Under the pieces are notes generated by a model, which worked only from the letters and a program-made list of their open reading frames with translations, had not been told where the DNA came from and did not search any database. The position numbers and the translations under genes were made by a program. A DNA stretch of 64,000 nt from Desulfosudaceae bacterium (GTDB lineage Bacteria > Desulfobacterota > Desulfobacteria > Desulfobacterales > Desulfosudaceae), in contig CAXXDV010000001.1 in NCBI GenBank assembly GCA_963674745.2, positions 672,001 to 736,000 on the forward strand, in the 5' to 3' direction. This document shows, one piece after another, positions 11,139 through 31,087 of this stretch. Position 1 is the first letter of the stretch, and every line of letters starts with the position of its first letter.

Positions 11139-11150
11139 TTTACCATCCTT

Positions 11151-11642: not shown

Positions 11643-11661
11643 GAATGGCGTCCTTTATCCT

Positions 11662-12705: not shown

Positions 12706-13004
12706 AAAACACCTCCGATATTGTTTTAGGAATAAATTGTGTGTCCAAGTTATGCATGCAAAATTTGTACAACTGTAAAAAAAGCGCCTTTTTTATTTTT
12801 AAGTATTCTATTTTATTATCATAAAAACATTTTCACCAAAAATTATCAAAAACACAAATTGGGGCCTATCGGATCGCCAGGCATCTCTTCTGACGGCCAT
12901 TTCAGCAATAACCACCTGTTATGATAAGGTTTTAAATTTAAATGCCCGCTATGCCCACCATGGGCACAAATGACCAGCATCATATGCTCGATCAACACCC
13001 GCTT

Positions 13005-13757
13005 TCAGGGTTTGCCCTTCCATACCAGACGCATCTGATTCAACTTAAAATCCAATGTATTATCAAGAATATACAAATTGGGGATCTCTTCAGCAATAGC
13101 ACCTTCAAGTGATACGTTGGCCTGAACGTGCTCCTTAAACGGAATGGTTAAATCGGCTTTTAACGGAATTTCCGCGGAAAATACCGTTTTAATCGGAATC
13201 TGGAAGACATCATCGATATCGACACTCACGGGCGTGCGCAGTGCCAGGGCAAAATCCTCATGCACCTCAACCTGTTGATCCACGGGTATACTTGTTTTAA
13301 CAGGGATATAGCCTTTTACGGGAACAGAAACGGGGATGCCCAGCACAGACGTCTTGATGACAGTGTCTACAAATACTTCTGTATCAATGGGAATATCGGA
13401 CTTGAAAGGAACGGTCATATAAACCGGGATAGTGGTGTTCAGTTCAATAGGGACATCAAGGGTTTTTTTAAAGGGGATGGAAAAGTGCTGTTGAAATGGG
13501 ACTGTAACGGAAATTGTTTCATTCAGGGGGATATGCAATAGCTGGTCGATTTCAGCCAGCACCGGAAAAGAGGCCGCCATCCGGGCTTTTAAGTATTGCT
13601 GTTCCAGGTTGATTCTCAGGCTGATACGGTCTAAAAAGCCGGTCGCGAAAAAGGCATATGCCATTACCGCGGCCAGAAGGACGGCACCGCATAAAACGCC
13701 CCCCAGCGCGGCGAAAAAAACGCGACCCGTCTTTATCGTGATATGATACTCCCCCAT
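13005..13757 (-). CDS. Hypothetical membrane-anchored protein with repeated [IV]P[hydrophobic] beta-strand motifs
   Basis: One N-terminal TM helix, then about 16 xP-hydrophobic motifs in alternating beta-pattern sequence. Confidence 0.7.
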   Translation of the reverse strand: MGEYHITIKTGRVFFAALGGVLCGAVLLAAVMAYAFFATGFLDRISLRINLEQQYLKARMAASFPVLAEIDQLLHIPLNETISVTVPFQQHFSIPFKKTLDVPIELNTTIPVYMTVPFKSDIPIDTEVFVDTVIKTSVLGIPVSVPVKGYIPVKTSIPVDQQVEVHEDFALALRTPVSVDIDDVFQIPIKTVFSAEIPLKADLTIPFKEHVQANVSLEGAIAEEIPNLYILDNTLDFKLNQMRLVWKGKP

Positions 13758-13811
13758 ATCGCCATTCCGAGTAAACTCAGCGCTTGAACAGGTGACGCAA
13801 TCAGGGCTGAC

Positions 13812-14345
13812 TTACTTTTTGGGCGTTGGAATAACCAGAACCGGAATTCGGCTTTTTTTCAAAACACTTTTGGTCGTAGAACCGGTAACCGCTTCCGCGA
13901 ACCTGTTGTAACGGCCATGTCCCATAACAATCAGGTCACAGTCGTATTTTTTGACGGCCGCGAAAATCTCAGAAACCGGATCTCCCTTTTTTACGATAAT
14001 TTCATCGGCCGGGATATCCTGCTGCTGAAGCTGGGTTTTCACATCTTCACAAAAAACCCCCAGGGCGTCTCTGACGACATCCGCCTCACGGCGTTTTCCG
14101 ATGAGAATATCCCTGGCACTTTCAGCATGTTCATCCTGTTTTTCGTCCAGCTCCCGCATTTTCTCACTGCCTAGAAAAACGGAAAGCATATTTCTGGTGT
14201 TTTCGGGCGGATCATCCCCCATCACATGAAGGATAACGATACTGGCTTTACTCAAGGCGGCAACACTGGTCACATACTGAAAAGAATAGCGGGCATGTTC
14301 GGAAAGATCAGTTGGAAAAAGAATTTTTTTGAATTTTGGGATCAC
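13812..14345 (-). CDS. Universal stress protein
   Basis: KKILFPTDLS, GDP..I..DLIVMG..GS....VL..IPVLVIP; GTG start after GGAGG. Confidence 0.9.
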   Translation of the reverse strand: MIPKFKKILFPTDLSEHARYSFQYVTSVAALSKASIVILHVMGDDPPENTRNMLSVFLGSEKMRELDEKQDEHAESARDILIGKRREADVVRDALGVFCEDVKTQLQQQDIPADEIIVKKGDPVSEIFAAVKKYDCDLIVMGHGRYNRFAEAVTGSTTKSVLKKSRIPVLVIPTPKK

Positions 14346-16114: not shown

Positions 16115-17407
16115 TTATTGGGGTCGTTTCACAGCCAGCAGCAGAACGGCCGCGACAATATCCAGAGCGATGAATAAAACGTAAGCCGTGTTATAAGAGC
16201 CGGTCAGATCGAAACTCAGACCGGCGATAATATACCCGCTCATCTGGAGCACCAGAAAAACAGCCATAAACCGGAATACCGATGCGAATGACGTTCTGCC
16301 GAAAAGATCGGCCACAATAATGGGGTAAGTCGCCATCACCCCGCCCATGGCAAACCCGAATAAAAAAATAAAAACGCCCACCGCCACTGCAGAATCCGCT
16401 ACCAGAGCCGCCACCAGGCCGATGCCGTTGGCGATCATGATGGCGGAAACCACCCGGAGGGGGTTGATAAAATCGCACAGCATGCCCCAGCTGTACTTGC
16501 CAAGCGCGCCGAAAAGGGCCGTCACGGCCATTAATGTCATGGCGGTTGTATCGGAAAAGCCGACATCCACGAACCTGGGTTTTAACTGGGACATGACACC
16601 GACCACCCCGGTCATGACCAGGGTATAGGCAAACCCCACCTGCCAGAAAGCAGGCACCCTGATCAGCCGGCCCAGGGTCCAGTTGTGATGCGCGTCGGGG
16701 CGGCCTTCGGCCGGGGAAACGCTCGTGCCGGTAACGTTTATGCCGGGGGTCGGCAAAACTTCTGCGCCATTATCCATGGCATACAGATCGGTTGCATCAC
16801 CATCCGGGAACAGCCCGCGCTGTTCGGGCCAGTCCACCACCACCAGCCAGAACAAGGGTGCAAAGGCCAGAACCGCCGCTCCGATGGCCACGGAAGCGCC
16901 GGTCATGCCCATACGTAAAACCAGGGCCATGGCAATAAGGGGCAGAACCGCGCCGGAAAACGAAATCCCGGAGGTCGCGATGCCCATGGCTTTGCCTCTT
17001 TTTCGGATAAACCAGTTGTTGACGGCCGAATTGGCGACAATGCCGCCGTAAGCACCGTTTCCGACAAACAGCAGGACATAATAAAAATAAAACAGCCACA
17101 GATGGGACGTATTAAAAAGCATCATAAACGCCAGGCCGCCGACAATGGACCCGGCCACCATCAGTCGTTTCACCCCCAGGCGCATGACCAGCGTGCCGTA
17201 GATAAATTGGCCGAAAAACCCGAAAGGAGTGCCGATCACCAGGGCCATGTTGACCTGGGTACGGGTCCAGCCGTAAGCGTCACAAAGCGGCTCCATAAAA
17301 GCGTTAAAGGCATAAAAACCCGTGCCAACGGACATGAAATTGGCGATAAAGGCCACCGCCACGATGTACCAGCCGTAAAAAAGCCGTTCCGGACGGTCAC
17401 CACTCAT
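16115..17407 (-). CDS. MFS transporter
   Basis: 12-TM pattern, FYGWYIV start, NWFIRKRGKAMGIA, DLFGR. Confidence 0.9.
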   Translation of the reverse strand: MSGDRPERLFYGWYIVAVAFIANFMSVGTGFYAFNAFMEPLCDAYGWTRTQVNMALVIGTPFGFFGQFIYGTLVMRLGVKRLMVAGSIVGGLAFMMLFNTSHLWLFYFYYVLLFVGNGAYGGIVANSAVNNWFIRKRGKAMGIATSGISFSGAVLPLIAMALVLRMGMTGASVAIGAAVLAFAPLFWLVVVDWPEQRGLFPDGDATDLYAMDNGAEVLPTPGINVTGTSVSPAEGRPDAHHNWTLGRLIRVPAFWQVGFAYTLVMTGVVGVMSQLKPRFVDVGFSDTTAMTLMAVTALFGALGKYSWGMLCDFINPLRVVSAIMIANGIGLVAALVADSAVAVGVFIFLFGFAMGGVMATYPIIVADLFGRTSFASVFRFMAVFLVLQMSGYIIAGLSFDLTGSYNTAYVLFIALDIVAAVLLLAVKRPQ

Positions 17408-17472
17408 GAAGATTTTCCTGTCTTAAAAATTCACCCGTTAATTCAGCCTTATCCTCGCCGCGCAGGCGGCCT

Positions 17473-18288
17473 TTACTCAACCCCTTCAGGCATGGGCACC
17501 ATGGGTTCACCGCCCAGCACATAGCCGCCGTCCAGCCGCAGCACACTGCCCGTCATAAAAGGCGCATCCTGGAGGATAAACAGCACCGCCCTGACCACGT
17601 CTTCCGGCCGACCGGTCCGGCCGACCAGGGTGTGATCGATAATGGCCTGTTTCTGCATTTCGGTCAGCAGTCCCCAGCCGCGGGTCTGCTGCGCGTGCCG
17701 GGTATCGACAAAACCCAGCATGATTTCATTGACCCGCACCTCGGGTGCGCCCATGCGGGCCCATGTTTCCGTCAACAGGGAGACACCCCGGCAGGCAGCA
17801 GCGTAACCGTCGTTAAAGACCGGCGCTGCCGGGCCGGAACGCCCGACCATCCCCGCGATAGAAGAAAAATTAATGACCACCCCCCGACCGGATTTTTTCA
17901 GATGCGGCAGTGCCGCCTGAAACACCCATTGCTTGGCCCGCAGGGTGGTGGCCAGCTCCATGTCCCACTGGCTCTGGTTATAGGCGCCATGAACAACCGG
18001 CCAGCCGCCGCGCTCGATATTATTGATCAGAATATCAAGACCGTCGAAACGGCTGACCACCTGATCGATCAGCCCGGGAATTTTTCCGGTGTGGTTTAAA
18101 TCAATGCGCCGGATCAGATGCTCCGCTCCGGTTTCGGCAAAGGCCGCTTCCATGTCGGGAAAATGGTCTTCCCAGTCATGCCAGGTCAGTGCCAGACGAA
18201 CGCCCCGCCGGGCCAGGGCCAAACCGATTTCACGGCCGATCCCCTTAACGGCGCCCAGCACCAGGGCGGTTTTACCCTCCAGGTCCAT
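17473..18288 (-). CDS. SDR family oxidoreductase
   Basis: LGAVKGIG, LDILINN, NFSS, FMTGSVLRLDGG; catalytic YxxxK appears as YAAAC. Confidence 0.85.
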   Translation of the reverse strand: MDLEGKTALVLGAVKGIGREIGLALARRGVRLALTWHDWEDHFPDMEAAFAETGAEHLIRRIDLNHTGKIPGLIDQVVSRFDGLDILINNIERGGWPVVHGAYNQSQWDMELATTLRAKQWVFQAALPHLKKSGRGVVINFSSIAGMVGRSGPAAPVFNDGYAAACRGVSLLTETWARMGAPEVRVNEIMLGFVDTRHAQQTRGWGLLTEMQKQAIIDHTLVGRTGRPEDVVRAVLFILQDAPFMTGSVLRLDGGYVLGGEPMVPMPEGVE

Positions 18289-18290
18289 CC

Positions 18291-19031
18291 TTACTCCTGC
18301 TTTTCCGGAAACAGTATATGGCGTGTCCAGACCAGCGCCAGTTCAAGAAGCGCCCCGTCGTCCATGGACGACTGCGCCGGATCGACCTTCTCCATCCCGG
18401 CCTCGGCCAGCCTTCCGGTTTCGAAAATCTCGCTTCGAAATCGATCCAGGTCATAACAACCGGTATAAAAGATATTGGCTTCCGCCAGGCTCAAGGTTCT
18501 GCCCGGCGCGAGCCGGTTTTTGGCACTGATGATTTCCATCATCAGATCGTTCATACGGTTGTATTCGGCCAACCCCTGGTCCATGATCCACTGCCGTACG
18601 GTCTGCGTCCCGCCCTGCTCAAAGCCCCGGCAGTGGTCTTCCTGGATCAGAAAATACCGTTCACTGATCTGCCCGGTTTCCCTGGCCCTGGACGCAAGGC
18701 GGATCAGGGGATACGTTCGACATGATGACGGTCGATCATCATAAACCCCGCATCCCTCCGGCGTCACAAACGGACAACGGGTATCATCCGGCGATTCGCT
18801 TTTCAGCGACACAATAACAAGCCCCGTTTCTCCGCCCGTCTGCTGCCGGGTATAACGGGCCAGAAACTCGGAAGAGAACAGGCCCAGCCCCTGCTTGAGA
18901 CGCAAAATATCATACGGGGTCAAAAACTGTACCAGGTCGCCGCAGCACTGGTTAAAACAGGTCACCTTCGGATGACAGGCAAACTGGAAGGTATCATCCA
19001 GCGACAACTCTACGGGTTCATAATCAACCAT
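18291..19031 (-). CDS. YkgJ-family cysteine cluster protein
   Basis: FQFACH..CFNQCC, CPFV..GCGVYDDRPSSCRTYPL, CRG. Confidence 0.88.
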   Translation of the reverse strand: MVDYEPVELSLDDTFQFACHPKVTCFNQCCGDLVQFLTPYDILRLKQGLGLFSSEFLARYTRQQTGGETGLVIVSLKSESPDDTRCPFVTPEGCGVYDDRPSSCRTYPLIRLASRARETGQISERYFLIQEDHCRGFEQGGTQTVRQWIMDQGLAEYNRMNDLMMEIISAKNRLAPGRTLSLAEANIFYTGCYDLDRFRSEIFETGRLAEAGMEKVDPAQSSMDDGALLELALVWTRHILFPEKQE

Positions 19032-19096
19032 ATAAATATTAAATCTTCTCCAATAACAACCTGACTTCTAAAAACTTTATTGAGGACGGCTTCATC

Positions 19097-19621
19097 CTAT
19101 TCCCCTTCGAACTCCACCAGGGTAAATATGGAATACCCCTTGATCTTGTCCTTGCCCTTTAAATCCGGCAGATCAATGACAAAAGCGCATTCCACCACTT
19201 CGCCGCCCAGTTTTTCCACCAGATCAACGGCGGCCTTAATGGTACCGCCGGTAGCAATCAGGTCGTCCATGATCAGCACCCGGTCGCCCTTTTTAAGGGC
19301 ATCTTCGTGAATCTCAATACTGTCTTCCCCGTATTCCAGCGCGTAGGACTGGCTGACGGTTTTATACGGCAGTTTGCCCTTTTTGCGGACCGGCACAAAC
19401 GGCAGGCCCATTTTATACGCCAGCGGCGCGCCGAAAATCAGGCCCCGGGCGTCAATCCCCAGGATGGCGTCAATTTTCATTCCCTGATAACGGTCATAAA
19501 AACAGTCGATGACTTCTTTAAACACCGCCGGATCCTGCAGCAAAGTCGTAATATCCCGAAACATAACCCCCTCGACCGGCCAGTTGGGTACGGTCCTGAT
19601 AGCATTTTTTACTTTCTCCAT
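19097..19621 (-). CDS. apt: Adenine phosphoribosyltransferase
   Basis: FRDITTLL, VRKKGKLP, YALEYG, DDLIATGGT. Confidence 0.96.
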   Translation of the reverse strand: MEKVKNAIRTVPNWPVEGVMFRDITTLLQDPAVFKEVIDCFYDRYQGMKIDAILGIDARGLIFGAPLAYKMGLPFVPVRKKGKLPYKTVSQSYALEYGEDSIEIHEDALKKGDRVLIMDDLIATGGTIKAAVDLVEKLGGEVVECAFVIDLPDLKGKDKIKGYSIFTLVEFEGE

Positions 19622-19635
19622 TCGGTCCCCCTTAT

Positions 19636-20385
19636 TTATATTTTGGCAATTGAGGCTAACAACAACTGCCTCACTTTTTCGGCGTTACTGTTGAACACAT
19701 CCATGATCTCTTTCCAGGTCACCGGCTCCTCATCTTCTTTCCAGCAGTCATAATCGGTCGACATGGCCACCGCCGCGTAGGGAATTTCAGCCTCATTGGC
19801 CAGGGCCGCTTCCGTGGCCACGGTCATATTAATGACGTCCGCGCCCCAGGCCCGAAACATTTTCGATTCCGCCCGGGTGGAAAACCGGGGGCCTTCAATG
19901 GTTACCACCGTGCCCCTGTCATGCACGGGCAAGTCCATTTCTTTGGCACATTCAATCATCACCCGGCGCAATTCTCCGTCAAAAGGATCGGCCATGGGCG
20001 TGTGCGCACTCATATCATTATCGGCGAAGGAATCAAAAAAAGTGTTATCCCTTTTCTTTGCAAAATCAATAAACTGGTCCAGAATAACAAAATGACCGCG
20101 GTCGATCTTTTCACGCAAACTGCCGCAGGCGGTAGTGGCCAGGATATGGGTCACGCCATGATCCTTCATGGCCTGAATGTTGGCCCGGTAATTGATCCCG
20201 GAAGGTGAATGCTGATGCTCTTTCCCGTGCCGGGGCAAAAGCACAACCTCTACGCCCTCGATCTTGCCACAGGTCAATGGCGCCGAAGGCTCGCCAAAAA
20301 TGGTCATCACTTCGTCTTCATGATACTCGCTCAACAGACCCGGATCATCCAGCCCGGATCCCCCGATAATCCCTATTTTTTTCAT
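19636..20385 (-). CDS. mtnP: S-methyl-5'-thioadenosine phosphorylase
   Basis: IGIIGGSG, RHG..H, INYRANI, IEGPRFSTRAES, TDYDCW. Confidence 0.92.
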   Translation of the reverse strand: MKKIGIIGGSGLDDPGLLSEYHEDEVMTIFGEPSAPLTCGKIEGVEVVLLPRHGKEHQHSPSGINYRANIQAMKDHGVTHILATTACGSLREKIDRGHFVILDQFIDFAKKRDNTFFDSFADNDMSAHTPMADPFDGELRRVMIECAKEMDLPVHDRGTVVTIEGPRFSTRAESKMFRAWGADVINMTVATEAALANEAEIPYAAVAMSTDYDCWKEDEEPVTWKEIMDVFNSNAEKVRQLLLASIAKI

Positions 20386-20784
20386 GTTCCACCCTGTTCC
20401 TGGTTAAAATTATAAAGAACGCTTCCACCCCAAAATTCATGGGTGGAAAAACCCGTTTGCCCGGATTGCGTGCATTAATCTCTGTTGAAATAGTATAAAT
20501 GCTACATATTGTCAAGATATTGCGCCAGTTAGCCTCTTCCCGTCACCGGACTCCGATTTATACTGGATCCCCCGGACAAGCTGGAGGATGGCTATGGGAA
20601 AGGCAACAGACTTCCCAGTTACTTCCCACTAATGTTTTCAGGCCCCTTACTTGTCATAAAAACCGACCGTCCCCCGTGTCGCCAATGCCGCCCATAACCA
20701 TAACATCAAGATATAACTGCGATATAATGCCTATGGGAATCATCAGGGCTAATTCGCTGTATTTTTTACCGAAAAACATTTTTC

Positions 20785-20813
20785 TTGACTGCGCGGTCAA
20801 ATTTTGTTATAAA
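20785..20813 (+). promoter_or_regulatory. Sigma70-type promoter with overlapping palindromic operator candidate
   Basis: TTGACT-17 bp-TATAAA; TTGAC-N6-GTCAA palindrome (20785-20800) covers the -35 box. Confidence 0.6.
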
Positions 20814-20889
20814 AATATATCATTTCGCGAATTATTATCCGTATAATCGCACACTCTATGCCACGCAAAAATGGGGGGGGGAAGGCACT

Positions 20890-21252
20890 GTGAAGCTCTG
20901 GTCAAGAGGTCTTGGAAAGACCGAAATCTACATGGATTTTCGCTATTACAAAACCATCAAAGACCCCGATACCGGGCAGATGATGATCATCGGCAGCATG
21001 CAGGACCCGGTCAACTGGGAATTTAAAGTAATTCTACAGCCGGAAGATATAGGCGGCGTCATGAAGTCCATGTTCAACCTGCCGATGATTTTTTTTATCC
21101 TCAGAAATCTCCACCAGTATGTGATCTACCTGTTCAAGCGCAAACAGTTCAACAACAGCCAGGAAAATATCGTGGAAAAAGTCAACACCGCCTATGAACA
21201 GATAATGAAGGCTCAGGATCAGAAACAGCGCCAGCAGCGATTTTCGTTTTAA
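20890..21252 (+). CDS. Hypothetical protein (MKLWSRGLG...), first gene of the flavoprotein operon
   Basis: GTG start after GGGGAAGG, 120 aa, globular N-terminus then an amphipathic/hydrophobic helix. Confidence 0.7.
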   Translation: MKLWSRGLGKTEIYMDFRYYKTIKDPDTGQMMIIGSMQDPVNWEFKVILQPEDIGGVMKSMFNLPMIFFILRNLHQYVIYLFKRKQFNNSQENIVEKVNTAYEQIMKAQDQKQRQQRFSF

Positions 21253-21317
21253 GCGTCTTTATATTTGAACCAAAACGCCTTTGGGCGCAACCTGTTTTTT
21301 ATCAAAGGAGGAAAACC

Positions 21318-23039
21318 ATGCCGGATTATGATGTCATCGTCATCGGCGGGGGCATAAACGGCCTGACCTGTGCCGCCTATCTGGGAAAAGCCGGGCTTAA
21401 AACCCTCCTCATCGAAGCCAGGGGCGAATGCGGCGCCCATTGTGACACCGTAGAAGCAAGCATCCCCGGTTATCTCTTTAATCTTCACGCCGTCTGGATG
21501 ATCACGCCCATCAGCCCGGCCATGGTGGACCTGGAGCTGGAAAAGTACGGGCTGGAATGGCGGACCACCGAATACGCCTGGGCCAAGACCTTTGCCGACG
21601 GCAAGAACATGCTGTCAGGCAACGATCCCTTTCTGACCGTTGACAAGGCCGGCCGGCATTCGGCCAGGGACGCCAAAACCATCCACAAGGGCATCAATTT
21701 CTTTATGGACAATCTGTACGAAGCCTGCCAGGTGATGCACGATTATATCTTTACCGCCCCCAGCCAGGCCAACGTAAAAAAAGTGACCGACATCGTCGAC
21801 CGATTCTTCCGGGCCGCCAAGGTCAATTGCAGCGGCGAAAAATTCATGCAGATGAACGGATACGAAATCCTGGACATTCTTTTTGAATCCGAATACGTCA
21901 AGACCACGGCCCATGCCCTCTCCTGGATCGGTGCCTATAACCCCCTGCAAAAACAGATCGGGGCCATGGGCTCGGCCCTGATCGGCCTGCTGCTGGGGCC
22001 TTTTTTCCCCTCGGTGGTGGTCAAAGGCGGTTCCCACGAGTTGACCCATGTGCTGGTCCAGGCCTGTATCGATAACGGCGTCACCGTCATGCCCAACTGC
22101 CCGGTCAAAACCATCATCACCGAAAACAATCGCGCCGGCGGCGTTATCCTGTCCGATCGGGCCCTTTATCCCGGGGAAACCATCACCGCCCAAAAAGTGG
22201 TCAGCAACGTCACCGCCGGACCTACTTTCCTGGACATGATCGGCGAGGACAAGCTGGGGCCGGACATGACCGCCCGGCTGAAAAAATTCGACTATGACGA
22301 GCAGAACCTGTTCACGGTCCACTTTGCGTTAAACGGTCAGCCTCAGTTTGCGTCGGCCGAATACGATGACGGTATTCAGCGGGCCTACATGGGTTATATG
22401 GGCGGAGAGACATCCGCCGAAATGATGCGCTTCGGCCGGAATATCGCCCCGGACAAGCGCCGTATCCACGACGACATCATCTGCAACTATTTTATTACCA
22501 CCCTGGCCGACCCGCTCCAGGCGCCGGCCGGATGCCACACCACCCACATGTGGCTGGACGTGCCGCCCGACCCGGCGGAATGGAAATTCGGACCGCTCAA
22601 GGGGTTTTCCGACTGGGACAGCCTCAAACAGGGCCTGGCCGACCAGATGACCGATACTTACGAAAAATATGCCCCGGGCTTCAAGTCACTGATCAAAGAC
22701 CGGCTGATCTACACGCCCCTGGACATGTACCGCAACAACCCATCGGCCGTCAAAGGCAACTGGGCCGGCGGCTCGCTGACACCCGGGCAGTACTACGAAA
22801 ACCGGCCGGTAGCCGGGGTCATCACCGGCGGCGGCACCCGCACCTTTATCGAAAACCTTTACCTGTCTAACTCCGTGCACCATTTTTCCAATTCGTCCCT
22901 GGCGTCCGGATATATCGCCGCCTGCGACGTGGCCGAGGACATGAATGCCAGAAACCAGGACTGGTGGCAGAGCCAGGGATTTCACTGGTACCTCCAGAAC
23001 TGCTCACGATTTCCCCGGGACCTGGGGGTGAATCCATAG
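21318..23039 (+). CDS. Phytoene dehydrogenase-like FAD-dependent oxidoreductase (COG1233)
   Basis: VIGGGINGL..AAYL..LIE, KGGSHELT, YTPLDM..N..GN, IENLYL; AGGAGG RBS. Confidence 0.88.
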   Translation: MPDYDVIVIGGGINGLTCAAYLGKAGLKTLLIEARGECGAHCDTVEASIPGYLFNLHAVWMITPISPAMVDLELEKYGLEWRTTEYAWAKTFADGKNMLSGNDPFLTVDKAGRHSARDAKTIHKGINFFMDNLYEACQVMHDYIFTAPSQANVKKVTDIVDRFFRAAKVNCSGEKFMQMNGYEILDILFESEYVKTTAHALSWIGAYNPLQKQIGAMGSALIGLLLGPFFPSVVVKGGSHELTHVLVQACIDNGVTVMPNCPVKTIITENNRAGGVILSDRALYPGETITAQKVVSNVTAGPTFLDMIGEDKLGPDMTARLKKFDYDEQNLFTVHFALNGQPQFASAEYDDGIQRAYMGYMGGETSAEMMRFGRNIAPDKRRIHDDIICNYFITTLADPLQAPAGCHTTHMWLDVPPDPAEWKFGPLKGFSDWDSLKQGLADQMTDTYEKYAPGFKSLIKDRLIYTPLDMYRNNPSAVKGNWAGGSLTPGQYYENRPVAGVITGGGTRTFIENLYLSNSVHHFSNSSLASGYIAACDVAEDMNARNQDWWQSQGFHWYLQNCSRFPRDLGVNP

Positions 23040-23074
23040 CCGCTTAACGTCAACACCTTTTGGGAGGTATGCCC

Positions 23075-24661
23075 ATGACAGTCAAGCACGTAGACGTGGC
23101 CATTATCGGCGCCGGCCCCAACGGCCTGATATGCGGTGCCTACCTGGCCGGCTGCGGCCTTAACGTGGCCCTGCTGGAAGCCCGCCACGAAACCGGCGGC
23201 GGCCTGGAAACACTGGAACTTTCCGGGTTCCGCTACAACCTGCACGCCGTCTATCACATGATGGCCCTGCAGATGCCCTGCTACCATGATTTCGGGTTGG
23301 ATCAGAAAGGCGTCAAATACGTGTTCCCGGATGTTCAATGCGCCTATATCAACGCCGGCCGGCCGCCCTTACTGTTTTACCGGAACGGGGAGAAAACCGC
23401 CGATTATCTGGCCCGGCACCTTTCCCCCGAAGACAGCCGCGCCTGGCGCCGCATGCACGCCGATTTCAAGGAATTTTCCGAAAAGATCCTCATACCCCTG
23501 ACCTATATTCCACCCCTGCCCTTTGTGGAACAGACGCTGGTCCTGGACAAGGCCCGGGACGATGTGGGCAGACGATACAACGAAATCGCGGACCTGACGC
23601 CCCTTGACATCCTCGACGCCTATAAGATCAAGGATCCGCTGAAAGCAGCCCTGCTCAACCTGTTTACCATGTGGGGCATGTCGCCCTATGAATTGGGATT
23701 TCTGTTCCCCTTGTACGTTTACCGGATGACGGACGCGGCCCTGGTCCGGGGCGGCTCCCACCGTTTATCCTCGGCGTTATACCGGACGTTTGTGGCCTCC
23801 GGCGGCACCGTCCTGGACCGGGCCGAAGTCGTGCGGATCCTGGTGGAAAAGGGCGGCGTGGCCGGCGTGGTGACCGCCGGCGGAGATGAAATCCGGGCCA
23901 AGGCGGTGGTCTCCACCTGCAACCCGGAACAAAACTTCACGCAGTTCATCGACCCGTCCGAACTGCCGACGGAACTGGTCGAAAGCGCCGGAAAGTGGGA
24001 ATGGGAAAAAACCACTTTTTTCGGCGTCCACCTGGCCTTGAAAGAATCGCCGGTGTACGGGCCGGATGAAGACGCCAACCGGGCCATGATCACCTTTTTC
24101 GATATCCAGGACACGCCCCGGCTGCTGGAACACCTGCGATCCGTTGAGCAGGGCGAACTGCCGGAAATCCCGCTGGGCCATGTCACCTGTCCGTCCCTGT
24201 TCGACCCCCTGCACGCGCCCGAAGGCCTTCATACCGGACGATGGGAGTGCCTGGTCCCGTTTGATGCCGACTGGGAAACCATTACCGGCGGTTACGCGCA
24301 AACCTGCGTCGACCGGTGGAAATCCGCCGCCCCCAACCTGGAACCGCTCAACGTGCTGGCCTATCCGCCCACCTATATTGAAAAGAAAAACCAATCCATG
24401 AAGCGGGGCTCCTACAAACATGGCGCCTACATCCCGCTGCAGATGGGTTACCTGCGGCCCAACGACATGTGCTCCCGGAACTTCACGCCGGTTGAACGGT
24501 TTTACGTGGCCGGCGCCAGCAGTTATCCCGGCGGCATGATCCTGGGCGGAGGCGGTTACCTGGCCGCCAATGCCATTGCCGCGGATTTCGGACTTGACAA
24601 GAACTGGCAGGAACCGATTTACATGCAGGCTGCGCGGCAGGCCGGAATCATCGCAGACTGA
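23075..24661 (+). CDS. Phytoene dehydrogenase-like FAD-dependent oxidoreductase (COG1233)
   Basis: IIGAGPNGL..AYLA..LE..GGG, RGGSHRL, TPVERFYVAGASSYPGG..GGGYLAA; GGAGGT RBS. Confidence 0.9.
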   Translation: MTVKHVDVAIIGAGPNGLICGAYLAGCGLNVALLEARHETGGGLETLELSGFRYNLHAVYHMMALQMPCYHDFGLDQKGVKYVFPDVQCAYINAGRPPLLFYRNGEKTADYLARHLSPEDSRAWRRMHADFKEFSEKILIPLTYIPPLPFVEQTLVLDKARDDVGRRYNEIADLTPLDILDAYKIKDPLKAALLNLFTMWGMSPYELGFLFPLYVYRMTDAALVRGGSHRLSSALYRTFVASGGTVLDRAEVVRILVEKGGVAGVVTAGGDEIRAKAVVSTCNPEQNFTQFIDPSELPTELVESAGKWEWEKTTFFGVHLALKESPVYGPDEDANRAMITFFDIQDTPRLLEHLRSVEQGELPEIPLGHVTCPSLFDPLHAPEGLHTGRWECLVPFDADWETITGGYAQTCVDRWKSAAPNLEPLNVLAYPPTYIEKKNQSMKRGSYKHGAYIPLQMGYLRPNDMCSRNFTPVERFYVAGASSYPGGMILGGGGYLAANAIAADFGLDKNWQEPIYMQAARQAGIIAD

Positions 24662-24697
24662 CAATATTAACGGCCGTGATTTAAAAACCGTTTTAGT

Positions 24698-24840
24698 AGG
24701 GCATCTCTAAAAATTAGAATTTTGGTTCGAGGTCAAGGCGTGTGAAAATTTTAACCACAGGAATACCTGGAGTATTTCGAGGATTAAAATTTGAGCACAA
24801 CGCCGAGATCGGGCCAAAAGGCAATTTTTAGAGGTGGCCT
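24698..24840. mobile_element. 143-bp palindromic MITE-like element with TTAGT flanking direct repeats
   Basis: Terminal inverted repeats AGGGCATCTCTAAAAATT / AATTTTTAGAGGTGGCCT, internal arms also complementary; TTAGT at 24693-24697 and 24841-24845. Confidence 0.7.
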
Positions 24841-24859
24841 TTAGTCACAAGGAGTCGAC

Positions 24860-25231
24860 ATGCGTTTTAAATTCCTATTATGGCTGGTCGCCGGCCTGAT
24901 GAAACGGGCCGGGCGGAAAAATACCGAATTTCAGAAAAAAATCGCCGGTAAAAAAGCCGTTGTCCAGATCGCCACCGCCGACGGGCAGTTGATCCGGTAC
25001 TTCGGCTTTGACGACGGCCGGGTGTCATCTTCGGTCGGCGGCCACGAAAAACCATCCTGCACGGTTTTTTTCAAAGACGCCGCTTTTGGTTTTTCCGCTC
25101 TTTTACCCTGGAACAAACGCCTCCAGGTCAGCGGCATTCAGAACGGCAGCATTCGTGTAGATGGCGATTTCTCTTTGTTCCTCTGGTTTCAGAGCCTGGC
25201 CCTGCTGATCCAGCCGGGAAAAAAATACTGA
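24860..25231 (+). CDS. SCP2 sterol/lipid-binding domain protein
   Basis: 123 aa, VVQIAT..RYF.F..G, GIQNGSIRVDGD..L.W typical of the SCP2 fold; AAGGAG RBS. Confidence 0.7.
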   Translation: MRFKFLLWLVAGLMKRAGRKNTEFQKKIAGKKAVVQIATADGQLIRYFGFDDGRVSSSVGGHEKPSCTVFFKDAAFGFSALLPWNKRLQVSGIQNGSIRVDGDFSLFLWFQSLALLIQPGKKY

Positions 25232-25248
25232 TGCAATAGGGAAGAACA

Positions 25249-26637
25249 ATGAAAAAGAAAATTATTATCATCGGCGCCGGGGTGGGCGGCATGGCCTGTG
25301 CCGCCCTGCTGGCCAAAGCCGGCCATGAGGTAACCGTGCTGGAGTCCCATTCCTTTCTCGGCGGGCGTTGCGCCACCCTGGAAAAGGACGGGTTTGTCTA
25401 CGATTTCGGCGTGCATATGTTCAGCCGGGGCGACTGCGGCCCCCACGGCGACACCAACCGCCGCCTCGACGGTGACCTGCAGTGGATCACCAAAGAACCG
25501 TCCTGTAGAGTCATGGGGAAAATGGAATTTGACTTTCCCCTGGATATCCGCCCGTTTTCCCGCCAGGTCAAGCTGGCCTTGCAGCTTGGCGTGCGGCCGA
25601 AAAACTTGTTCGGGGCCTGGCGCCTGTTCCGTACCCTGATGAGCGGTCGCAGCGTCGAAGCAAACAACAACGTCTTCCTGGAAGACTACATTTTTCGTTT
25701 CACCGGCGACGAAAGTATCCATTTATTTATCACATGCGTTTCCCAGCTTTACTTTGCACTGTCCGCCAGACAGGCTTCGGCCGGCGAGTTCATCTGGTGT
25801 TTTTCCCGCATGTTTAAAGACGCCGCCTTCGGTTATCCTAAAGGCGGTGCCCGGGCCATCCCGCAGGCTTTTGAGGATGCCTTGATCCGTTACGGCGGGA
25901 CCATCGCCTATGAAACCCCGGTCACCGGTATCCGGGTCGAAAACAAACGGGTCACCGGCGTGGACACGGCCAGGAATTTTTTCCCGGCCGATATCGTCAT
26001 TTCCAATGCCGGCCTGAACCGCACCATCGACCTGGCCGGCGCCGACCGGTTTCCCGAGGACTATGTCAAACGGGCCAAAACCCTGAAATACGCCAACCCT
26101 TACGTCACCAACACCTACGCCCTGGACTGGCCGGTGGTGCCTTATCCGGTGGTGTTCTATATGCCGGACATGCCGGCCGATAAAATTTTCTCTCACATAG
26201 AGAACAACACCGCGCCCGAAGATCCTTATCTGTTCATGCCCATCCCCAGCAATCTTGATCCCGGCCTGGCGCCGCCCGGCAAACAACTGGTTATTGCCGG
26301 TACACCGGTGGCCCCCGGGGCCGACGATGACGTCTGCCAACAGACACTGGACCGGATCGACGACCGCGTACACAAACTGTTTCCGGAAATCAAAAAGGCG
26401 CTCATCTGGCAGGAACAGGGCACCCGGGCCGACACGACCCGCATCACCGCCCATCCTCCGGGCGGGGCCATCGGCCTGGGACAGTTCCCTGGCCAGACCG
26501 GACAGCAGCGGCCCTCTTTGCAGACACCCGTAACCGGGCTATACCTGGTCGGCGCCGACGCCGGCAGCCGGGGCATCGGTACGGAGCTGGCCGTGGGCAG
26601 CGCCCTCAACCTGGCCGACCTGCTGGCTGGAACATAA
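25249..26637 (+). CDS. Phytoene desaturase-family FAD-dependent oxidoreductase
   Basis: IIGAGVGG..AALLA..VLE..GGR, YPKGGA, APPGKQL, TPVTGLYLVGAD. Confidence 0.88.
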   Translation: MKKKIIIIGAGVGGMACAALLAKAGHEVTVLESHSFLGGRCATLEKDGFVYDFGVHMFSRGDCGPHGDTNRRLDGDLQWITKEPSCRVMGKMEFDFPLDIRPFSRQVKLALQLGVRPKNLFGAWRLFRTLMSGRSVEANNNVFLEDYIFRFTGDESIHLFITCVSQLYFALSARQASAGEFIWCFSRMFKDAAFGYPKGGARAIPQAFEDALIRYGGTIAYETPVTGIRVENKRVTGVDTARNFFPADIVISNAGLNRTIDLAGADRFPEDYVKRAKTLKYANPYVTNTYALDWPVVPYPVVFYMPDMPADKIFSHIENNTAPEDPYLFMPIPSNLDPGLAPPGKQLVIAGTPVAPGADDDVCQQTLDRIDDRVHKLFPEIKKALIWQEQGTRADTTRITAHPPGGAIGLGQFPGQTGQQRPSLQTPVTGLYLVGADAGSRGIGTELAVGSALNLADLLAGT

Positions 26638-26728
26638 CCGCCGGTTTTGTCAATTTTCATGACACTTTCCGAAATATTTGCTATTATTCTTTAATCCATG
26701 ATTAATCACTTTACGGGGGAAGTGTCGG

Positions 26729-27409
26729 ATGATGAAATATGCCTTTACTTTCGAGGACGGTAAAACCCTGGAATTCCCTGTTGAGGAAGGCGTCGACACC
26801 TCTTCGGAAGCGGGGTTGACGGACGCGCCGGATTGGATGGAGCTTGAGAATTATCGCTGCAAAGAGTGCGGCATCCCGGCAGGAGAGAGAAAAACCTGCC
26901 CCGCGATCCTGGCCATCAAACCGGTCATTGATTCGTTGGACAGCCATTTTTCCTATGAAAAAGTCCATCTTGTTTTTACCCGTGACGATATCCGGATGGA
27001 AACAGATATCAGTATTCAGCGGGCCCTGCGCTCGCTCATCGGCTTTCTACTCCCTTTTTCCAGTTGCCCGGTAATGATGAAACTCAGGCCCATGGCCTAC
27101 TTTCATCTACCGTTGGGGAGTAAAGACCACACCGCCTTCCGGTTTATCGGTATGTACCTGACGGCCCAGTACCTGCGCCAGAGGGCAAACCTGTCATCCG
27201 ACTGGGAGCTTGAGCAACTCCTTGATCTTTTCAGAAAAATCCACATGGTCAACCGGGGTCTGGCCAACCGGATCCGGGTGGCGGCCAAGGCCGATGCCAC
27301 CGTAAACGGGATTGTCCTGCTGGACGCGTTTGCGGATTCCGTGGAAGTGCAAGTGGAAGAATTGTTAGAGGAGATGAAGCCCTTTTTCTCGACTTACCTG
27401 TCCGATTGA
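26729..27409 (+). CDS. Conserved hypothetical protein with Cys motifs (DUF6901-like)
   Basis: WMEL..RCKEC..CPA, SSCPV..LRPMAYFHLP, DATVNG..LD; family name recalled, not searched. Confidence 0.6.
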   Translation: MMKYAFTFEDGKTLEFPVEEGVDTSSEAGLTDAPDWMELENYRCKECGIPAGERKTCPAILAIKPVIDSLDSHFSYEKVHLVFTRDDIRMETDISIQRALRSLIGFLLPFSSCPVMMKLRPMAYFHLPLGSKDHTAFRFIGMYLTAQYLRQRANLSSDWELEQLLDLFRKIHMVNRGLANRIRVAAKADATVNGIVLLDAFADSVEVQVEELLEEMKPFFSTYLSD

Positions 27410-27421
27410 GCCAGCCGGCGG

Positions 27422-28252
27422 CTATACCCCCAGTACCTTTTGAATAACGTTTTTCCGGTACAAAAAGGAAAAGGTGCCCAGATAGATGCGGGGCAGCCAG
27501 CGTTTGACCCGCCACAAAACACGGGCATCCCACTGGGGCAGGACATAGAACCGGTTTTTTTCCACCGCGCGTATAAGCTGCCCGGCCACCTTCTCGGCCG
27601 GAAATGACGACCGGTCAAAAAGCGTCCTGATCATGGTTTCCTTTTCTTTGTCCTGACAATAAAGTTGATCCATCAGGTTCGTCTGGAAAAACGACGGCAT
27701 CAGCACCGACACGCCGATGTTTTTCCCGGACAGCTCGATGCGCAGTGTTTCCGACAAAGACACAATGGCGGCCTTGGTCAGGTTGTAACAGGCCGAACCC
27801 GGCGCGGATAAAAAGGCCAGGTAGGATGCCACGTTGGCAATATGGCCCCCGCCCTGCTGGGCCAGCATGGGAATGAAGGTCTTGCAGCCGTAAATGCAGC
27901 CCATGAGATTAATATCCATGATCCAGCGCCAGCGTTCCACGGGTATGGTCTCCATATCGCCATAGGCCGATACACCGGCGTTGTTGACCACCACGTCCAC
28001 TCCGCCCCAGGCGTCCCGGACCGTCGCCGCCGCCGCCTCCAGATGTTCCGGTTGTGTGACGTCGCAGGTAATGCCGAGCGCCTGCCCCCCGGCCCGTTTA
28101 ACCATCTCAACCGTCCCCTCGACGCGCTCCGGATCGATATCGCTCACCGCCACCCGCCATTGCCGCCCGGCCCAACCCAGCGCCAGGGCCCGTCCCAGCC
28201 CGCTGCCGGCACCGGTAACCAAAACCCTTTTCTCCGCCAATCGTTTATTCAT
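27422..28252 (-). CDS. SDR family oxidoreductase
   Basis: TGAGSGLG, VNNAGV, NVAS, YNLTK. Confidence 0.92.
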   Translation of the reverse strand: MNKRLAEKRVLVTGAGSGLGRALALGWAGRQWRVAVSDIDPERVEGTVEMVKRAGGQALGITCDVTQPEHLEAAAATVRDAWGGVDVVVNNAGVSAYGDMETIPVERWRWIMDINLMGCIYGCKTFIPMLAQQGGGHIANVASYLAFLSAPGSACYNLTKAAIVSLSETLRIELSGKNIGVSVLMPSFFQTNLMDQLYCQDKEKETMIRTLFDRSSFPAEKVAGQLIRAVEKNRFYVLPQWDARVLWRVKRWLPRIYLGTFSFLYRKNVIQKVLGV

Positions 28253-28262
28253 AATCCCCCCT

Positions 28263-28381
28263 GTCATTGCCCGGCCTTTTTACCTCGTCATTACCCGGCC
28301 TTTTTACCCCGTCATTATCCGGCTTGACCGGATAATCCAGATTCCTTCCCCGTCATTGCCCGGCTTGACCGGGCAATCCAG
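28263..28381. repeat. CGTC-family REP cluster (four units)
   Basis: GTCATTGCCCGGCTTGACCGGGCAATCCAG-type hairpins plus two 24-bp truncated tandem copies. Confidence 0.75.
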
Positions 28382-28452
28382 CACAAAGCCGACAGTAATT
28401 TTTTATCCCCAATATCTTGAAAAAAGAAATAAAAAGTCTGCAAACAGGCCAT

Positions 28453-28791
28453 CTACGAGTACTTCAGAATCGCCTGAATTTGTTGAATAAGGGAAGGCAG
28501 ATTTTCTTTTACCGTCTGCAATATCACACGGTAATCAATATCAAAATAGACATGAATCAAGCGATTGCGCATTCCAATAATTTTATGCCAGGGTATGTGG
28601 GTATGCTCTTCACGGAAATGATCAGAAAGGTTCGCGGCTGCTTCACCAATTACTTCAATAGATCGAATAATCGCACGGACGGTTTTTCCATCCTGAACAA
28701 AAGCTTCATAAGAAAGCCCCTCGGCATAACTACATGCCTCTTCAGCTTCTTCAAGAATGTGCATTAACCGAATCCGATCTTCAGGCTGCAT
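28453..28791 (-). CDS. HepT-like (DUF86/HEPN) RNase toxin
   Basis: IEVIGEAA, IPW..I.GMRNRLIHVY (Rx4HxY). Confidence 0.92.
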   Translation of the reverse strand: MQPEDRIRLMHILEEAEEACSYAEGLSYEAFVQDGKTVRAIIRSIEVIGEAAANLSDHFREEHTHIPWHKIIGMRNRLIHVYFDIDYRVILQTVKENLPSLIQQIQAILKYS

Positions 28792-29083
28792 ATTCTACTT
28801 TCGCTGTTTTTAAAACCTCGTTTCTGAAATAGCGGCTAAGCTCCGCCGGGGTGCGAAGGTCTACTTTTCTACCAATCATTTCCGACAATTCGATCTCCAT
28901 TCCAGCTAAATCCATCAAGCCCGGAATATGATTTTGATGAAACTCAACAAGAATATCAATATCACTGTTTGGCGTCAGGTCATCACGAATGGCGGAACCA
29001 AAAAGTGCCATTTTGGTTATGTGATTCCTTCGACAAAAAGAATCCAGTTCTTTGCGAGAAATATAATTCGTAATCATAAACAT
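28781..29083 (-). CDS. MntA-like minimal nucleotidyltransferase antitoxin
   Basis: LFGSAIRDD..SDIDILVEF (GSx10DxD), GRKVDL; overlaps the toxin start; GAGGA RBS. Confidence 0.92.
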   Translation of the reverse strand: MFMITNYISRKELDSFCRRNHITKMALFGSAIRDDLTPNSDIDILVEFHQNHIPGLMDLAGMEIELSEMIGRKVDLRTPAELSRYFRNEVLKTAKVEYAA

Positions 29084-29218
29084 TTTTATTCCTCTCTCCC
29101 CCGTCGGCACGCCCATTTAAAATCAACGGCAACTTTTTATTATCACAACCTGGCGACACTACCAATATACGCTACAAACTAAATCATTTCAAGATCTTCC
29201 TAAAACAGCCACACACCT

Positions 29219-29372
29219 CGTCATTCCGGCCCCCGAGCGCTTCCCCTCGTCATTGCCCGAGCGCTTCCTTCCTCGTCATTCCGGCCAGTGGAGCGAAGCG
29301 AAACGTGAGCCGGAATCCAGTATAAAATTGATATTTTTTCCTCGTCACAAGCGGCTTGACCGGAAAATCCAG
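29219..29372. repeat. CGTC-family REP cluster (four units)
   Basis: CGTCATTCCGGC...CCGGAATCCAG and degenerate copies. Confidence 0.7.
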
Positions 29373-29485
29373 CCATAATTTTTACTATACCACATCACCG
29401 CCCATATTCACCCACCAGTGCCTGATTGATTTGCCCGCTTTGACGTGTTAGCCTGTTTTCTACTTTAATCGATTAGCAAAGGAGC

Positions 29486-31087
29486 ATGGATATGGATCCC
29501 CTATGGATCGTGGCCGCATTCATATTCGGCGCGCTGATCAGTAAAACCGGGTTACCGCCCCTGGTGGGCTATTTACTGGCCGGGTTCTTCCTCAACCGTA
29601 TCGGCGTCGATGGCGGCGACAATCTTGTCAAAATCGCCGATGCCGGCGTGACGTTGCTCCTTTTTACCATCGGCCTGAAACTGAAACTAAAAAGCCTGTC
29701 CAGACCGGAAGTCTGGGCCGGTACAACGATCCACATGGCCGTTACGGTCGCCGTCTACGGTTTGGCCATCCGGATTGCCGGGTGGGCAGGCGTTCCCCTT
29801 TTCGAAGGACTGAACGTCTATACCGCCCTGCTGGTTGCCTTTGCGCTTTCTTTTTCCAGCACGGTCTTCGCCGTAAAAGTGCTTGAAGGGAAAAAAGAGA
29901 CGGCTTCCCGGCATGCCGTAACCGCCATCGGCATCCTCATCATGCAGGACATCATCGCGGTTGTTTTTCTGGCCTCCTCGACCGGGAAACTCCCCTCCCC
30001 CTGGGCTTTAGCCCTTTTCCCGGCGTTGCTTATCGCCCGCCCCGTCCTGGCCAGGTTTATGGCCCGCTGCGGCCACGGCGAACTGCTGATGCTGTTCGGC
30101 ATCCTGATGGCCATCACCGGTTATGTCAGTTTCGAGCGGGTCGGATTAAAGGGAGACCTGGGCGCCCTGGTGTTCGGCATGCTTGTCGCCGCTCATCCCA
30201 AGGCCGCCGAACTGGCGGAAAGACTGCTCAGTTTTAAGGACCTGCTTCTGATCGGCTTCTTTCTGAATATCGGCATCTCCGGCACACCGACATCAACCGG
30301 GCTGCTGATCGCCGCCGCCCTGGCGGTTGTCATGCCGTTTAAAGCCGGATTGTTTTTCCTGCTTCTGACACGGTTTAAACTGCGCGCCCGAACCTCCCTG
30401 CTGGCCTCGTTCAGCCTGGCCAATTACAGCGAATTCGGCCTTATCGTCGGTTCAATCGGCGCGGCCAACGGCTGGATCAGCAGCGACTGGCTGGCCATCA
30501 TCGCCGTTGCCCTTTCCATCACCTTTATCATGGCCGCGCCCCTCAATTCAGCCGCCCACGCCATCTATGCCCGGATATCAAGCCGTATCAAAAGTTTTGA
30601 AACCGAAAAACGCCTGCCGGATGATCAACCCATCGATACCGGCGATGCCGAGATCGCCGTCATCGGCATGGGCGTTGTGGGCACCAGCGCCTACGACGAA
30701 ATGAACCGCCGTTACGGCGACATCGTGATCGGCATTGATTTCGACACCGAAAAAGTCAAAAAGCACCGTGAGACGGGCAGAAACGTGTTTCACGGCGATG
30801 CCGGGGACAGTGATTTCTGGGAACGCATCGAGCCCGCCAACAGCCAGGTCATCCTGGTCATGCTGGCCCTTCCCGACCCCCGGACCAGCGTGTTTGCCAT
30901 TCAGCAGATGAAACAAAAAGGCTACCCGGGGCAAATCACGGCCTCGGTCAGCTACGAAGATGAGATGCACCTGCTCAAAACAGAAGGCATCGACGCCGTC
31001 TACAGCTTATACGAAGAAGCCGGTGTGGGTTTTGCCGACCACGTATGCGACCACATGGATTATTGCAGAATTAAAATGAGTCAATAA
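29486..31087 (+). CDS. CPA2-family cation:proton antiporter with C-terminal TrkA-N (KTN) domain
   Basis: LPPLVGYLLAG, LLFTIGL, FSST, LIMQD, SEFG, then IGMGVVG..GDA. Confidence 0.9.
   Translation: MDMDPLWIVAAFIFGALISKTGLPPLVGYLLAGFFLNRIGVDGGDNLVKIADAGVTLLLFTIGLKLKLKSLSRPEVWAGTTIHMAVTVAVYGLAIRIAGWAGVPLFEGLNVYTALLVAFALSFSSTVFAVKVLEGKKETASRHAVTAIGILIMQDIIAVVFLASSTGKLPSPWALALFPALLIARPVLARFMARCGHGELLMLFGILMAITGYVSFERVGLKGDLGALVFGMLVAAHPKAAELAERLLSFKDLLLIGFFLNIGISGTPTSTGLLIAAALAVVMPFKAGLFFLLLTRFKLRARTSLLASFSLANYSEFGLIVGSIGAANGWISSDWLAIIAVALSITFIMAAPLNSAAHAIYARISSRIKSFETEKRLPDDQPIDTGDAEIAVIGMGVVGTSAYDEMNRRYGDIVIGIDFDTEKVKKHRETGRNVFHGDAGDSDFWERIEPANSQVILVMLALPDPRTSVFAIQQMKQKGYPGQITASVSYEDEMHLLKTEGIDAVYSLYEEAGVGFADHVCDHMDYCRIKMSQ

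Follow-up and report, generated by a model that had tools for sequence, protein, structure and literature searches.

The window, a 64,000-nt stretch of a Desulfosudaceae bacterium genome with positions counted from its first letter, carries a cluster of five genes, g1–g5, within a feature spanning 20785..26637. The original prediction, made from the sequence alone, described an operon of three phytoene dehydrogenase-family (COG1233) flavoproteins, an SCP2 lipid carrier and a lead gene of unknown family, in which the first two flavoproteins would form a heterodimer like the limonene dehydrogenase CtmAB and act on a hydrophobic substrate without O2. All five open reading frames (ORFs) are present at the predicted sizes, co-oriented on the plus strand, and the feature is laid out as follows (aa, amino acids).

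20785..20813, plus strand: promoter-like TTGACT-N17-TATAAA, 77 nt upstream of the g1 start; seen by eye only, weak.
20890..21252, plus strand: g1, small conserved partner protein, 120 aa; GTG start, GGAAGG ribosome-binding site.
21318..23039, plus strand: g2, predicted alpha subunit of a CtmAB/delta-24-SD-type flavoprotein, 573 aa; GYLFNLHA motif with His57; Cys38, His41, Cys42 and S517-N-S-x-H521.
23075..24661, plus strand: g3, predicted beta subunit, 528 aa; GFRYNLHA motif; canonical GGG and GAS..PGG flavin-binding motifs.
24695..24845, no strand assigned: palindromic repeat element of ~145 bp, occupying the g3–g4 gap.
24860..25231, plus strand: g4, SCP2-like putative hydrophobic-ligand carrier, 123 aa; narrow clade only.
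25249..26637, plus strand: g5, predicted classical (non-covalent type) CrtI-family flavoprotein, 462 aa; Gly replaces the covalent His.

The g1 start was placed at GTG 20890 by aligning 47 homologues from related loci. For g3, ATG 23075 is the most likely start because nearly all full-length homologues are 528–537 aa long; an alternative TTG at 23060 would give 533 aa. The intergenic gaps measure 65 bp (g1–g2), 35 bp (g2–g3), 198 bp (g3–g4) and 17 bp (g4–g5). The repeat element in the g3–g4 gap is built of inverted repeats and has 47 BLAST matches in the source genome, itself included; among the matches listed, the copies are mostly 133–146 nt long and 81–96% identical. Since this 198-bp gap holds a palindromic repeat, operon status for all five genes is putative. 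The corresponding gap in a genome of the same genus, G402, is only ~43 bp. The promoter proposed at 20785 can be seen by eye, but a scan of 20300–28500 did not list it and found promoter-like sites no more often than in shuffled sequence (6 versus 5.2 ± 2.4), so the site carries no evidential weight. Nothing in Rfam matched 20000–29500 at E ≤ 0.1.

Related loci were gathered by scanning one genome per species and keeping the best 80 of 127 relatives, with neighbors tested by tblastn; 70 loci had room for the beta-type gene and 78 for g1. By their record titles, these loci come from Desulfobacterales, Desulfosudis oleivorans, Desulfatibacillum alkenivorans, Smithella, Spirochaetota and Nitrospirae, as well as from Acidobacteria, Acidimicrobiia, Myxococcota, Binatia and Calescibacterium. 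The alpha–beta pairing on which the CtmAB-like reading hinged is conserved: a beta-type gene begins within 400 bp after alpha in 57 of the 70 loci, and 7 of the other 13 have a beta-like gene directly upstream. Of the 78 loci, 57 contain g1, and in 44 it immediately precedes alpha. A g5 homologue of at least 50% identity occurs in 5 of the 80 loci, and another 13 have a CrtI-like gene of greater divergence; no g4 homologue was found in any of the 80. In G402, all five genes follow in the same order, with identities of 76, 84, 76, 66 and 74% from g1 to g5. The g1–g2–g3 order across phyla, together with all five genes in order within the genus, indicates an arrangement far beyond chance. The conserved unit is g1–g2–g3, which g4 and g5 join in a narrow clade. 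The five-gene neighborhood of the original prediction stands in part, holding in full in G402 and for the first three genes elsewhere.

The module is patchily distributed. Of 401 genomes sampled evenly across the phylum, 30 (source genome included) have g1. An alpha match at E ≤ 1e-100 was found in at least 9, a lower bound because three candidates per genome were scored; all 9 have g1, adjacent to alpha in 8. Of 40 relatives sampled, 12 belong to the family and 28 to the rest of the order; g1 is present in 4 of the 12, including both of those from the genus, and in 4 of the 28, which represent four different families. Relatives hold several copies of the module per genome; the source genome has one copy of g1.

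Two characterized enzymes provide the points of comparison for g2 and g3. [quoted passage not shown] Adjacent genes encode its alpha (63 kDa) and beta (57 kDa) subunits, which are 26% identical to each other and 34% and 38% identical to CtmA and CtmB, respectively; each carries flavin mononucleotide covalently bound to a histidine. The same text places this histidine within the consensus G-F-L/R-x-N/S-T/L-H-A near the N terminus, which it also reports for both CtmAB subunits. CtmA and CtmB of Castellaniella defragrans 65Phen (CDM25290/CDM25289) are 565 and 549 aa long and 27% identical (PMC4109377).

The window pair resembles both enzymes. g2 and g3 are encoded in tandem, are 26% identical and, at 573 and 528 aa, are of similar size to the CtmAB subunits. 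The g3 motif GFRYNLHA fits the flavinylation consensus exactly, and GYLFNLHA of g2 fits it with Tyr in place of Phe; the histidine is residue 57 in both proteins. The hydrophobic substrate and O2-independence of CtmAB would be a further likeness. The nearest relatives of CtmAB and delta-24-SD are deltaproteobacterial (PMC11061730, PMC4109377), and for CtmA and CtmB the best database relative came from the sulfate reducer NaphS2 (PMC4109377). This strain is not among the 120 g3 matches listed, where relatives appear without names or with generic ones. The differences lie in the surroundings. The window cluster lacks the CtmE [2Fe-2S] ferredoxin and CtmF reductase, and has a conserved upstream g1 with an SCP2-like protein, a third, CrtI-type flavoprotein and a short-chain dehydrogenase/reductase (SDR) attached; the steroid-pathway context of delta-24-SD is absent at the locus. 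The ctm operon has small hypothetical genes, ctmC and ctmD, and g1 is a small gene of this kind in the window cluster; any relationship between them would be putative. Neither sulfate-reducer homologues nor a third small gene is treated in the available portions of the limonene dehydrogenase literature, and the supplementary trees of PMC11061730 may name close relatives.

To see how far these features extend, 140 sequences were grouped: COG1233 ORFs of 430–700 aa from the 80 loci (137 of the 158 in that cluster) plus g2, g3 and g5. The groups derive from average-linkage clustering of pairwise identities and are not a rooted phylogeny.

Alpha group, 57 sequences: motif His kept in 55.
Beta group, 56 sequences: motif His kept in 56.
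Third-paralogue group, 12 sequences: motif His kept in 12.
g5-type group, 6 sequences: Gly at the motif His position in all 6.
Three small groups of 5, 3 and 1 sequences: Trp, Gly and His, respectively, at the motif position.

The g2 protein contains RGECGAHCDT and LSNSVHHFS where the family usually has its GG and C-terminal flavin motifs, and the original prediction had called these stretches degenerate. Across the 57 alpha-type sequences, Cys38 and Cys42 are invariant and His41 is present in 56, while at the C terminus Ser517 is kept in 54, Asn518 in 53, Ser519 in 55 and His521 in 54. A smaller alpha alignment has these hallmarks in 16 of 16 sequences. Beta retains GGG (second Gly in 56 of 56) and the usual C-terminal motif. 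The near-invariance of the deviant g2 motifs indicates that alpha is a conserved, specialized subunit and not a product of decay; the motifs and the specialization were correctly noted, the degeneracy was not. By analogy with the two type enzymes, we infer that g2 and g3 bind flavin covalently and form a heteromer.

Many loci (L028, L030, L031, L037, L042–L045, L047, L054, L062, L063, L080 and others) have a second flavoprotein pair in tandem beside alpha/beta. Its members are the third paralogue type, marked by PGFRIDPHAT at the histidine position, and a beta-like protein sharing 35–40% identity with g3. Tandem duplication of the module is therefore frequent.

Pfam assigns only general flavoprotein domains to g2, g3 and g5, and sequence searches of the PDB with the three proteins found no close solved structure. 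They share with classical CrtI, CrtO, CrtD and HpnE the common fold and the Rossmann GxGxxG, and g5 keeps the classical GFxxDxG and C-terminal motifs. An ordinary carotenoid pathway, with a CrtO ketolase and CrtI desaturases, could be suggested by the fact that CrtO (NF045689) is the best NCBIfam model for both g2 and g3 and by the label 'beta-carotene ketolase (CrtO type)' that JGI gives some homologues. The scores themselves (145 bits for g2, 132.3 for g3) fall far below the CrtO cut-off of 1000. The crtI_fam cut-off (TIGR02734, 238.1 bits) is likewise missed by g2 (54.3), g3 (56.6) and g5 (120.1), as is that of HpnE (TIGR03467, 283 bits; 30, 27.4 and 52.4, respectively). g2 and g3 also carry the covalent-flavin histidine motif instead of the CrtI pattern, and in g2 a conserved Cys-x-x-His-Cys and SNSxH replace the GG and C-terminal flavin motifs. 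The source genome (5.55 Mb in 3 contigs, 99.96% complete) has no match to phytoene/squalene synthase (PF00494) or squalene-hopene cyclase (PF13243), the enzymes that would make the substrate. Their absence, originally noted for the window, thus extends to the whole genome. With the curated cut-offs missed and neither synthase nor cyclase matched, the three proteins do not qualify as biosynthetic CrtI, CrtO or HpnE and a carotenoid or hopanoid role is not supported; we consider the carotenoid pathway refuted, its probability close to nil. The conserved pairing, the covalent-flavin motif in both proteins and the missed cut-offs together support a CtmAB-like pair. The genome also encodes DsrA (621.5 bits against a cut-off of 392.85), which marks the host as of the sulfate-reducing type and makes the assumption of an anaerobic host reasonable.

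The lead gene remains, as first described, without a known family: g1 matches no Pfam family, and the ESM Atlas returned 'hypothetical protein' clusters only. Its invariant residues are Ser5, Gly7, Leu8, Gly9, Glu12, Asp16, Gly35, Pro40, Trp43, Phe45, Asp53 and Gly56, with no Cys or His among them and no cofactor motifs. The AlphaFold (AF2) model is confident, with a predicted local distance difference test score (pLDDT) of 85.9, and consists of five short strands, forming an N-terminal sheet, followed by helices. No convincing structural neighbor was found (best Foldseek E 0.12; best VIA-align Z 3.6 among 48,161 chains). A profile search of 1.84 billion representative proteins gave 257 matches at E ≤ 0.001. 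Every one of the 150 listed is a small protein (54–400 aa), nearly all matched at the N terminus, and so no fusion to a flavoprotein is seen among them. When profiles were compared, g1 and g4 proved unrelated.

The tight linkage between g1 and alpha points to partners that interact physically or during assembly, and g1 is a candidate third structural subunit or assembly/flavinylation helper. Purified delta-24-SD gave two bands near 60 kDa, and the available part of PMC11061730 documents no g1-like third subunit, which mildly favors the helper role. A bolder proposal holds that g1 defines an undescribed family and an obligatory partner of CtmAB/delta-24-SD-type enzymes, installing the covalent histidyl-flavin or linking the enzyme to its acceptor as a third subunit. 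The spread of the g1–alpha–beta module through Desulfobacterota, Acidimicrobiia, Myxococcota, Nitrospirota and others would then mark a widespread O2-independent attack on isoprenoids and alkenes, even in sulfate reducers. We regard this extended proposal as somewhat unlikely.

The assignment of g4 to SCP2 is probable. The protein itself scores below the Pfam cut-off for SCP2 (PF02036; 16.9 bits, E 0.0085, against 21.3 bits), but all 14 members of its family match SCP2 at E ≤ 0.1, the best at 7.1e-5, and its best PDB profile match is SCP2 (E 0.038). Foldseek matches of its low-confidence model (pLDDT 56) are led by SCP2 and UbiJ-SCP2 (E 1.8e-4 to 6e-3; TM score 0.5–0.6, 0.59 for UbiJ-SCP2), with agreement in size and order of secondary structure, and one homologue is labeled UbiJ in its source database. 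The SCP2 identity of g4 is less firm than the original prediction made it, with support from the family-wide matches and from the fold matches of the low-confidence model. That g4 is a real gene follows from its 13 homologues, 64–90% identical and every one 123 aa long, in a family confined to a narrow clade. In 3 of the 80 loci, the gene immediately before g1 belongs to a distinct SCP2 family (Pfam E 1e-6), which aligns to g4 by hhalign at E 0.043. With two separate SCP2 families beside the module, a lipid-carrier gene has joined it at least twice, which fits a hydrophobic ligand. For g5, whose sequence marks it as a classical CrtI-type flavoprotein, the best PDB matches are the uncharacterized archaeal proteins 3ka7 and 3nrn, and the ESM Atlas gave generic CrtI-like clusters only.

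Two further genes lie just downstream of the cluster.

26729..27409, plus strand: DUF6901 protein, 226 aa; Pfam E 5e-58; cluster membership doubtful.
27422..28267, minus strand: SDR oxidoreductase, transcribed toward the cluster; probable link through an alcohol/ketone step; scores 302 bits on NF004196 (cut-off 297).

An SDR homologue of at least 50% identity recurs beside the module in 4 of the 80 loci (L001, L010, L018 and L038) and is absent beside the G402 cluster. The DUF6901 gene was rejected as a cluster member: it occurs in none of the 80 loci, is absent next to the G402 cluster and has its own promoter-like site at 26659–26687.

The neighbors of the module in relatives bear on its role. 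As counted by crude ORF calling and single-linkage clusters over the 80 loci, they include SDR (10 loci), a 4Fe-4S protein (10), TetR regulators (9 and 5, in two clusters), NAD-epimerase/3-beta-HSD (9), acyl-CoA dehydrogenase (8), NMO (8), aldehyde dehydrogenase (6), CoA ligase (4) and a sigma-54 activator (4). Thiolase, enoyl-CoA hydratase, CoA-transferase, Zn-dependent alcohol dehydrogenase and TRAP transporters also recur, and MerR regulators are found next to the module as well. The TetR, SDR, aldehyde dehydrogenase, CoA ligase and acyl-CoA dehydrogenase genes give the module an inducible catabolic flavor, running from alcohol through aldehyde and acid to CoA ester. Limonene dehydrogenase of C. 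defragrans feeds the same series of steps (PMC4109377).

The 4Fe-4S family comprises L003:11374-12198 and 15 further ORFs in 10 loci, each ~270–300 aa, with a Cys-rich N-terminal part and a C-terminal 2x[4Fe-4S] domain. The family, which may serve the module in electron transfer, has no member in the window and no relationship to the DUF6901 protein. One locus, L038, has a ferredoxin–nitroreductase fusion by the module.

Other neighbors are particular to single genomes. In G402 (L087, G402:C12:32000-48000), the five-gene cluster is immediately preceded by genes for a histidine kinase and a sigma-54 response regulator and immediately followed by two HGD-D family genes (2-hydroxyacyl-CoA dehydratase/benzoyl-CoA reductase type).

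10953-13930 and 2598-5191 of L087: the kinase/regulator and HGD-D genes, respectively; none at the window locus.

A few kb downstream of g5 in another member of the family, a TetR regulator and a methyltransferase accompany an MMPL/RND-type transporter (L001:15597-17678, minus strand) that has a sterol-sensing domain; the transporter hints at transport of a hydrophobic compound.

A cluster of this composition might instead tailor the cell's own lipids. The flavoproteins would then desaturate, saturate or hydroxylate the side chain of an isoprenoid quinone or an unusual membrane lipid, which a UbiJ-like SCP2 would present. The UbiJ-SCP2 resemblance of g4, the archaeal CrtI-like relatives of g5 and the gene order kept within the genus are in line with such a role, as is the lack of downstream catabolic genes or a regulator at the window locus. 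A phytoene-desaturase homologue of Methanosarcina reportedly makes hydroxyarchaeol (work cited in PMC12669819), which also counts in its favor. A tailoring function is harder to reconcile with the patchy occurrence of g1 (30 of 401 genomes in the phylum, 4 of 12 in the family), with the several paralogous copies in relatives and with the TetR, MerR or sigma-54 regulators and CoA-pathway genes adjoining the module elsewhere. Both characterized members are catabolic, and the source genome has no phytoene/squalene synthase match. We consider biosynthetic tailoring unlikely.

The catabolic neighbors, the patchy distribution and the paralogue expansions together favor O2-independent allylic oxidation of an external hydrophobic substrate by the g2/g3-type enzyme, to which we assign a probability of about 0.6. 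The mechanism can be drawn by analogy with CtmAB and delta-24-SD. The alpha and beta subunits, each of CrtI fold, would each bind flavin covalently at His57. A hydride or hydrogen atom would be taken, without O2, from an allylic C–H of a water-insoluble isoprenoid-like or alkene substrate, and the allyl intermediate would be either captured by water (hydroxylation) or deprotonated (desaturation). Electrons would leave via the second flavin to an acceptor. g1 would serve in one of its two candidate roles, as third structural subunit or as assembly/flavinylation helper, and g4 may hold the hydrophobic substrate or product. g5 could perform a second double-bond step (isomerization, saturation or hydration), and the SDR may oxidize the resulting alcohol. 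We infer the reaction type, the catabolic role and the parts played by g1, g4 and g5 from this analogy.

Several observations weigh against allylic oxidation. Limonene dehydrogenase is argued to need an acceptor of positive potential and is said to be one that 'may not be operable' in sulfate-reducing or methanogenic organisms (PMC12583861, 2025), and the DsrA-bearing host, compared with the denitrifier C. defragrans, is of just this type. No CtmE/CtmF-like ferredoxin or reductase was found among the ten proteins of 16115–28267 or in the scanned flanks. Domain scans of the flanks found no beta-oxidation, aldehyde dehydrogenase or CoA-ligase genes adjoining the window cluster, and no TetR or sigma-54 regulator stands beside it. 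The sigma-54 promoter pattern has 30 matches in the window against 35.9 expected, none upstream of g1. No neighbor type in the relatives exceeds 10 of the 80 loci. The consensus Phe is Tyr in g2, and g1 is not among the subunits reported for purified delta-24-SD. The predicted placement of g2 and g3 as alpha and beta of the CtmAB/delta-24-SD family draws on motif, architecture, sizes and published statements.

The thermodynamic objection would lose its force if the enzyme worked in the reductive direction, as a C=C reductase that saturates unsaturated hydrophobic compounds with low-potential electrons and so provides an electron sink, a detoxification or a degradation step. The 4Fe-4S proteins by the module in 10 of the 80 loci and the ferredoxin–nitroreductase fusion in L038 would suit such an enzyme. 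The CrtI superfamily includes saturases and isomerases, which makes this direction conceivable for the fold. Pointing the other way, a covalent histidyl linkage usually raises flavin potential, both characterized relatives oxidize their substrates and the window cluster has no NAD(P)H- or ferredoxin-linked partner. We consider reduction very unlikely, and allylic oxidation is the reading that we retain.

Two other observations concern the surroundings of the cluster. Just downstream of the SDR gene, at 28453-29116 on the minus strand of the window, an ORF with a nucleotidyltransferase domain (Pfam NTP_transf_2) overlaps a 112-aa ORF; the couple is probably a small toxin–antitoxin-like pair. 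In the source genome, ~2 kb before the window start, a CrtI-family gene (G000:C1:668632-670155, minus strand) encodes a protein of ~540 aa that scores 189 bits to TIGR02734, below the cut-off. Its N terminus resembles a lipoprotein signal peptide, and an exported CrtI-like flavoprotein would be unusual.

To our knowledge, only two enzymes of the CtmAB/delta-24-SD family have been characterized, both from denitrifiers, and we know of no account of their natural acceptors or their assembly. Judged from sequence, three things are new here: evidence for a small unnamed protein as conserved partner of the predicted alpha/beta pair; a set of alpha-specific Cys/His hallmarks (Cys38, His41, Cys42 and SNSxH) that provides testable residues; and, in a genus of putative sulfate reducers, a five-gene form that includes an SCP2-like carrier together with a classical CrtI-type enzyme. 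A compact, single-copy cluster in a near-complete genome of the sulfate-reducer type is a clean system in which to ask which substrates are oxidized in strictly anoxic habitats, how allylic oxidation couples to low-potential metabolism and what the conserved small protein does. Should sedimentary isoprenoids, alkenes or sterol side chains prove to be the substrates, the module would provide a set of marker genes for anaerobic lipid turnover. If the g1–alpha–beta route is active in sulfate reducers, it would contradict the expectation of a high-potential acceptor set out in PMC12583861.

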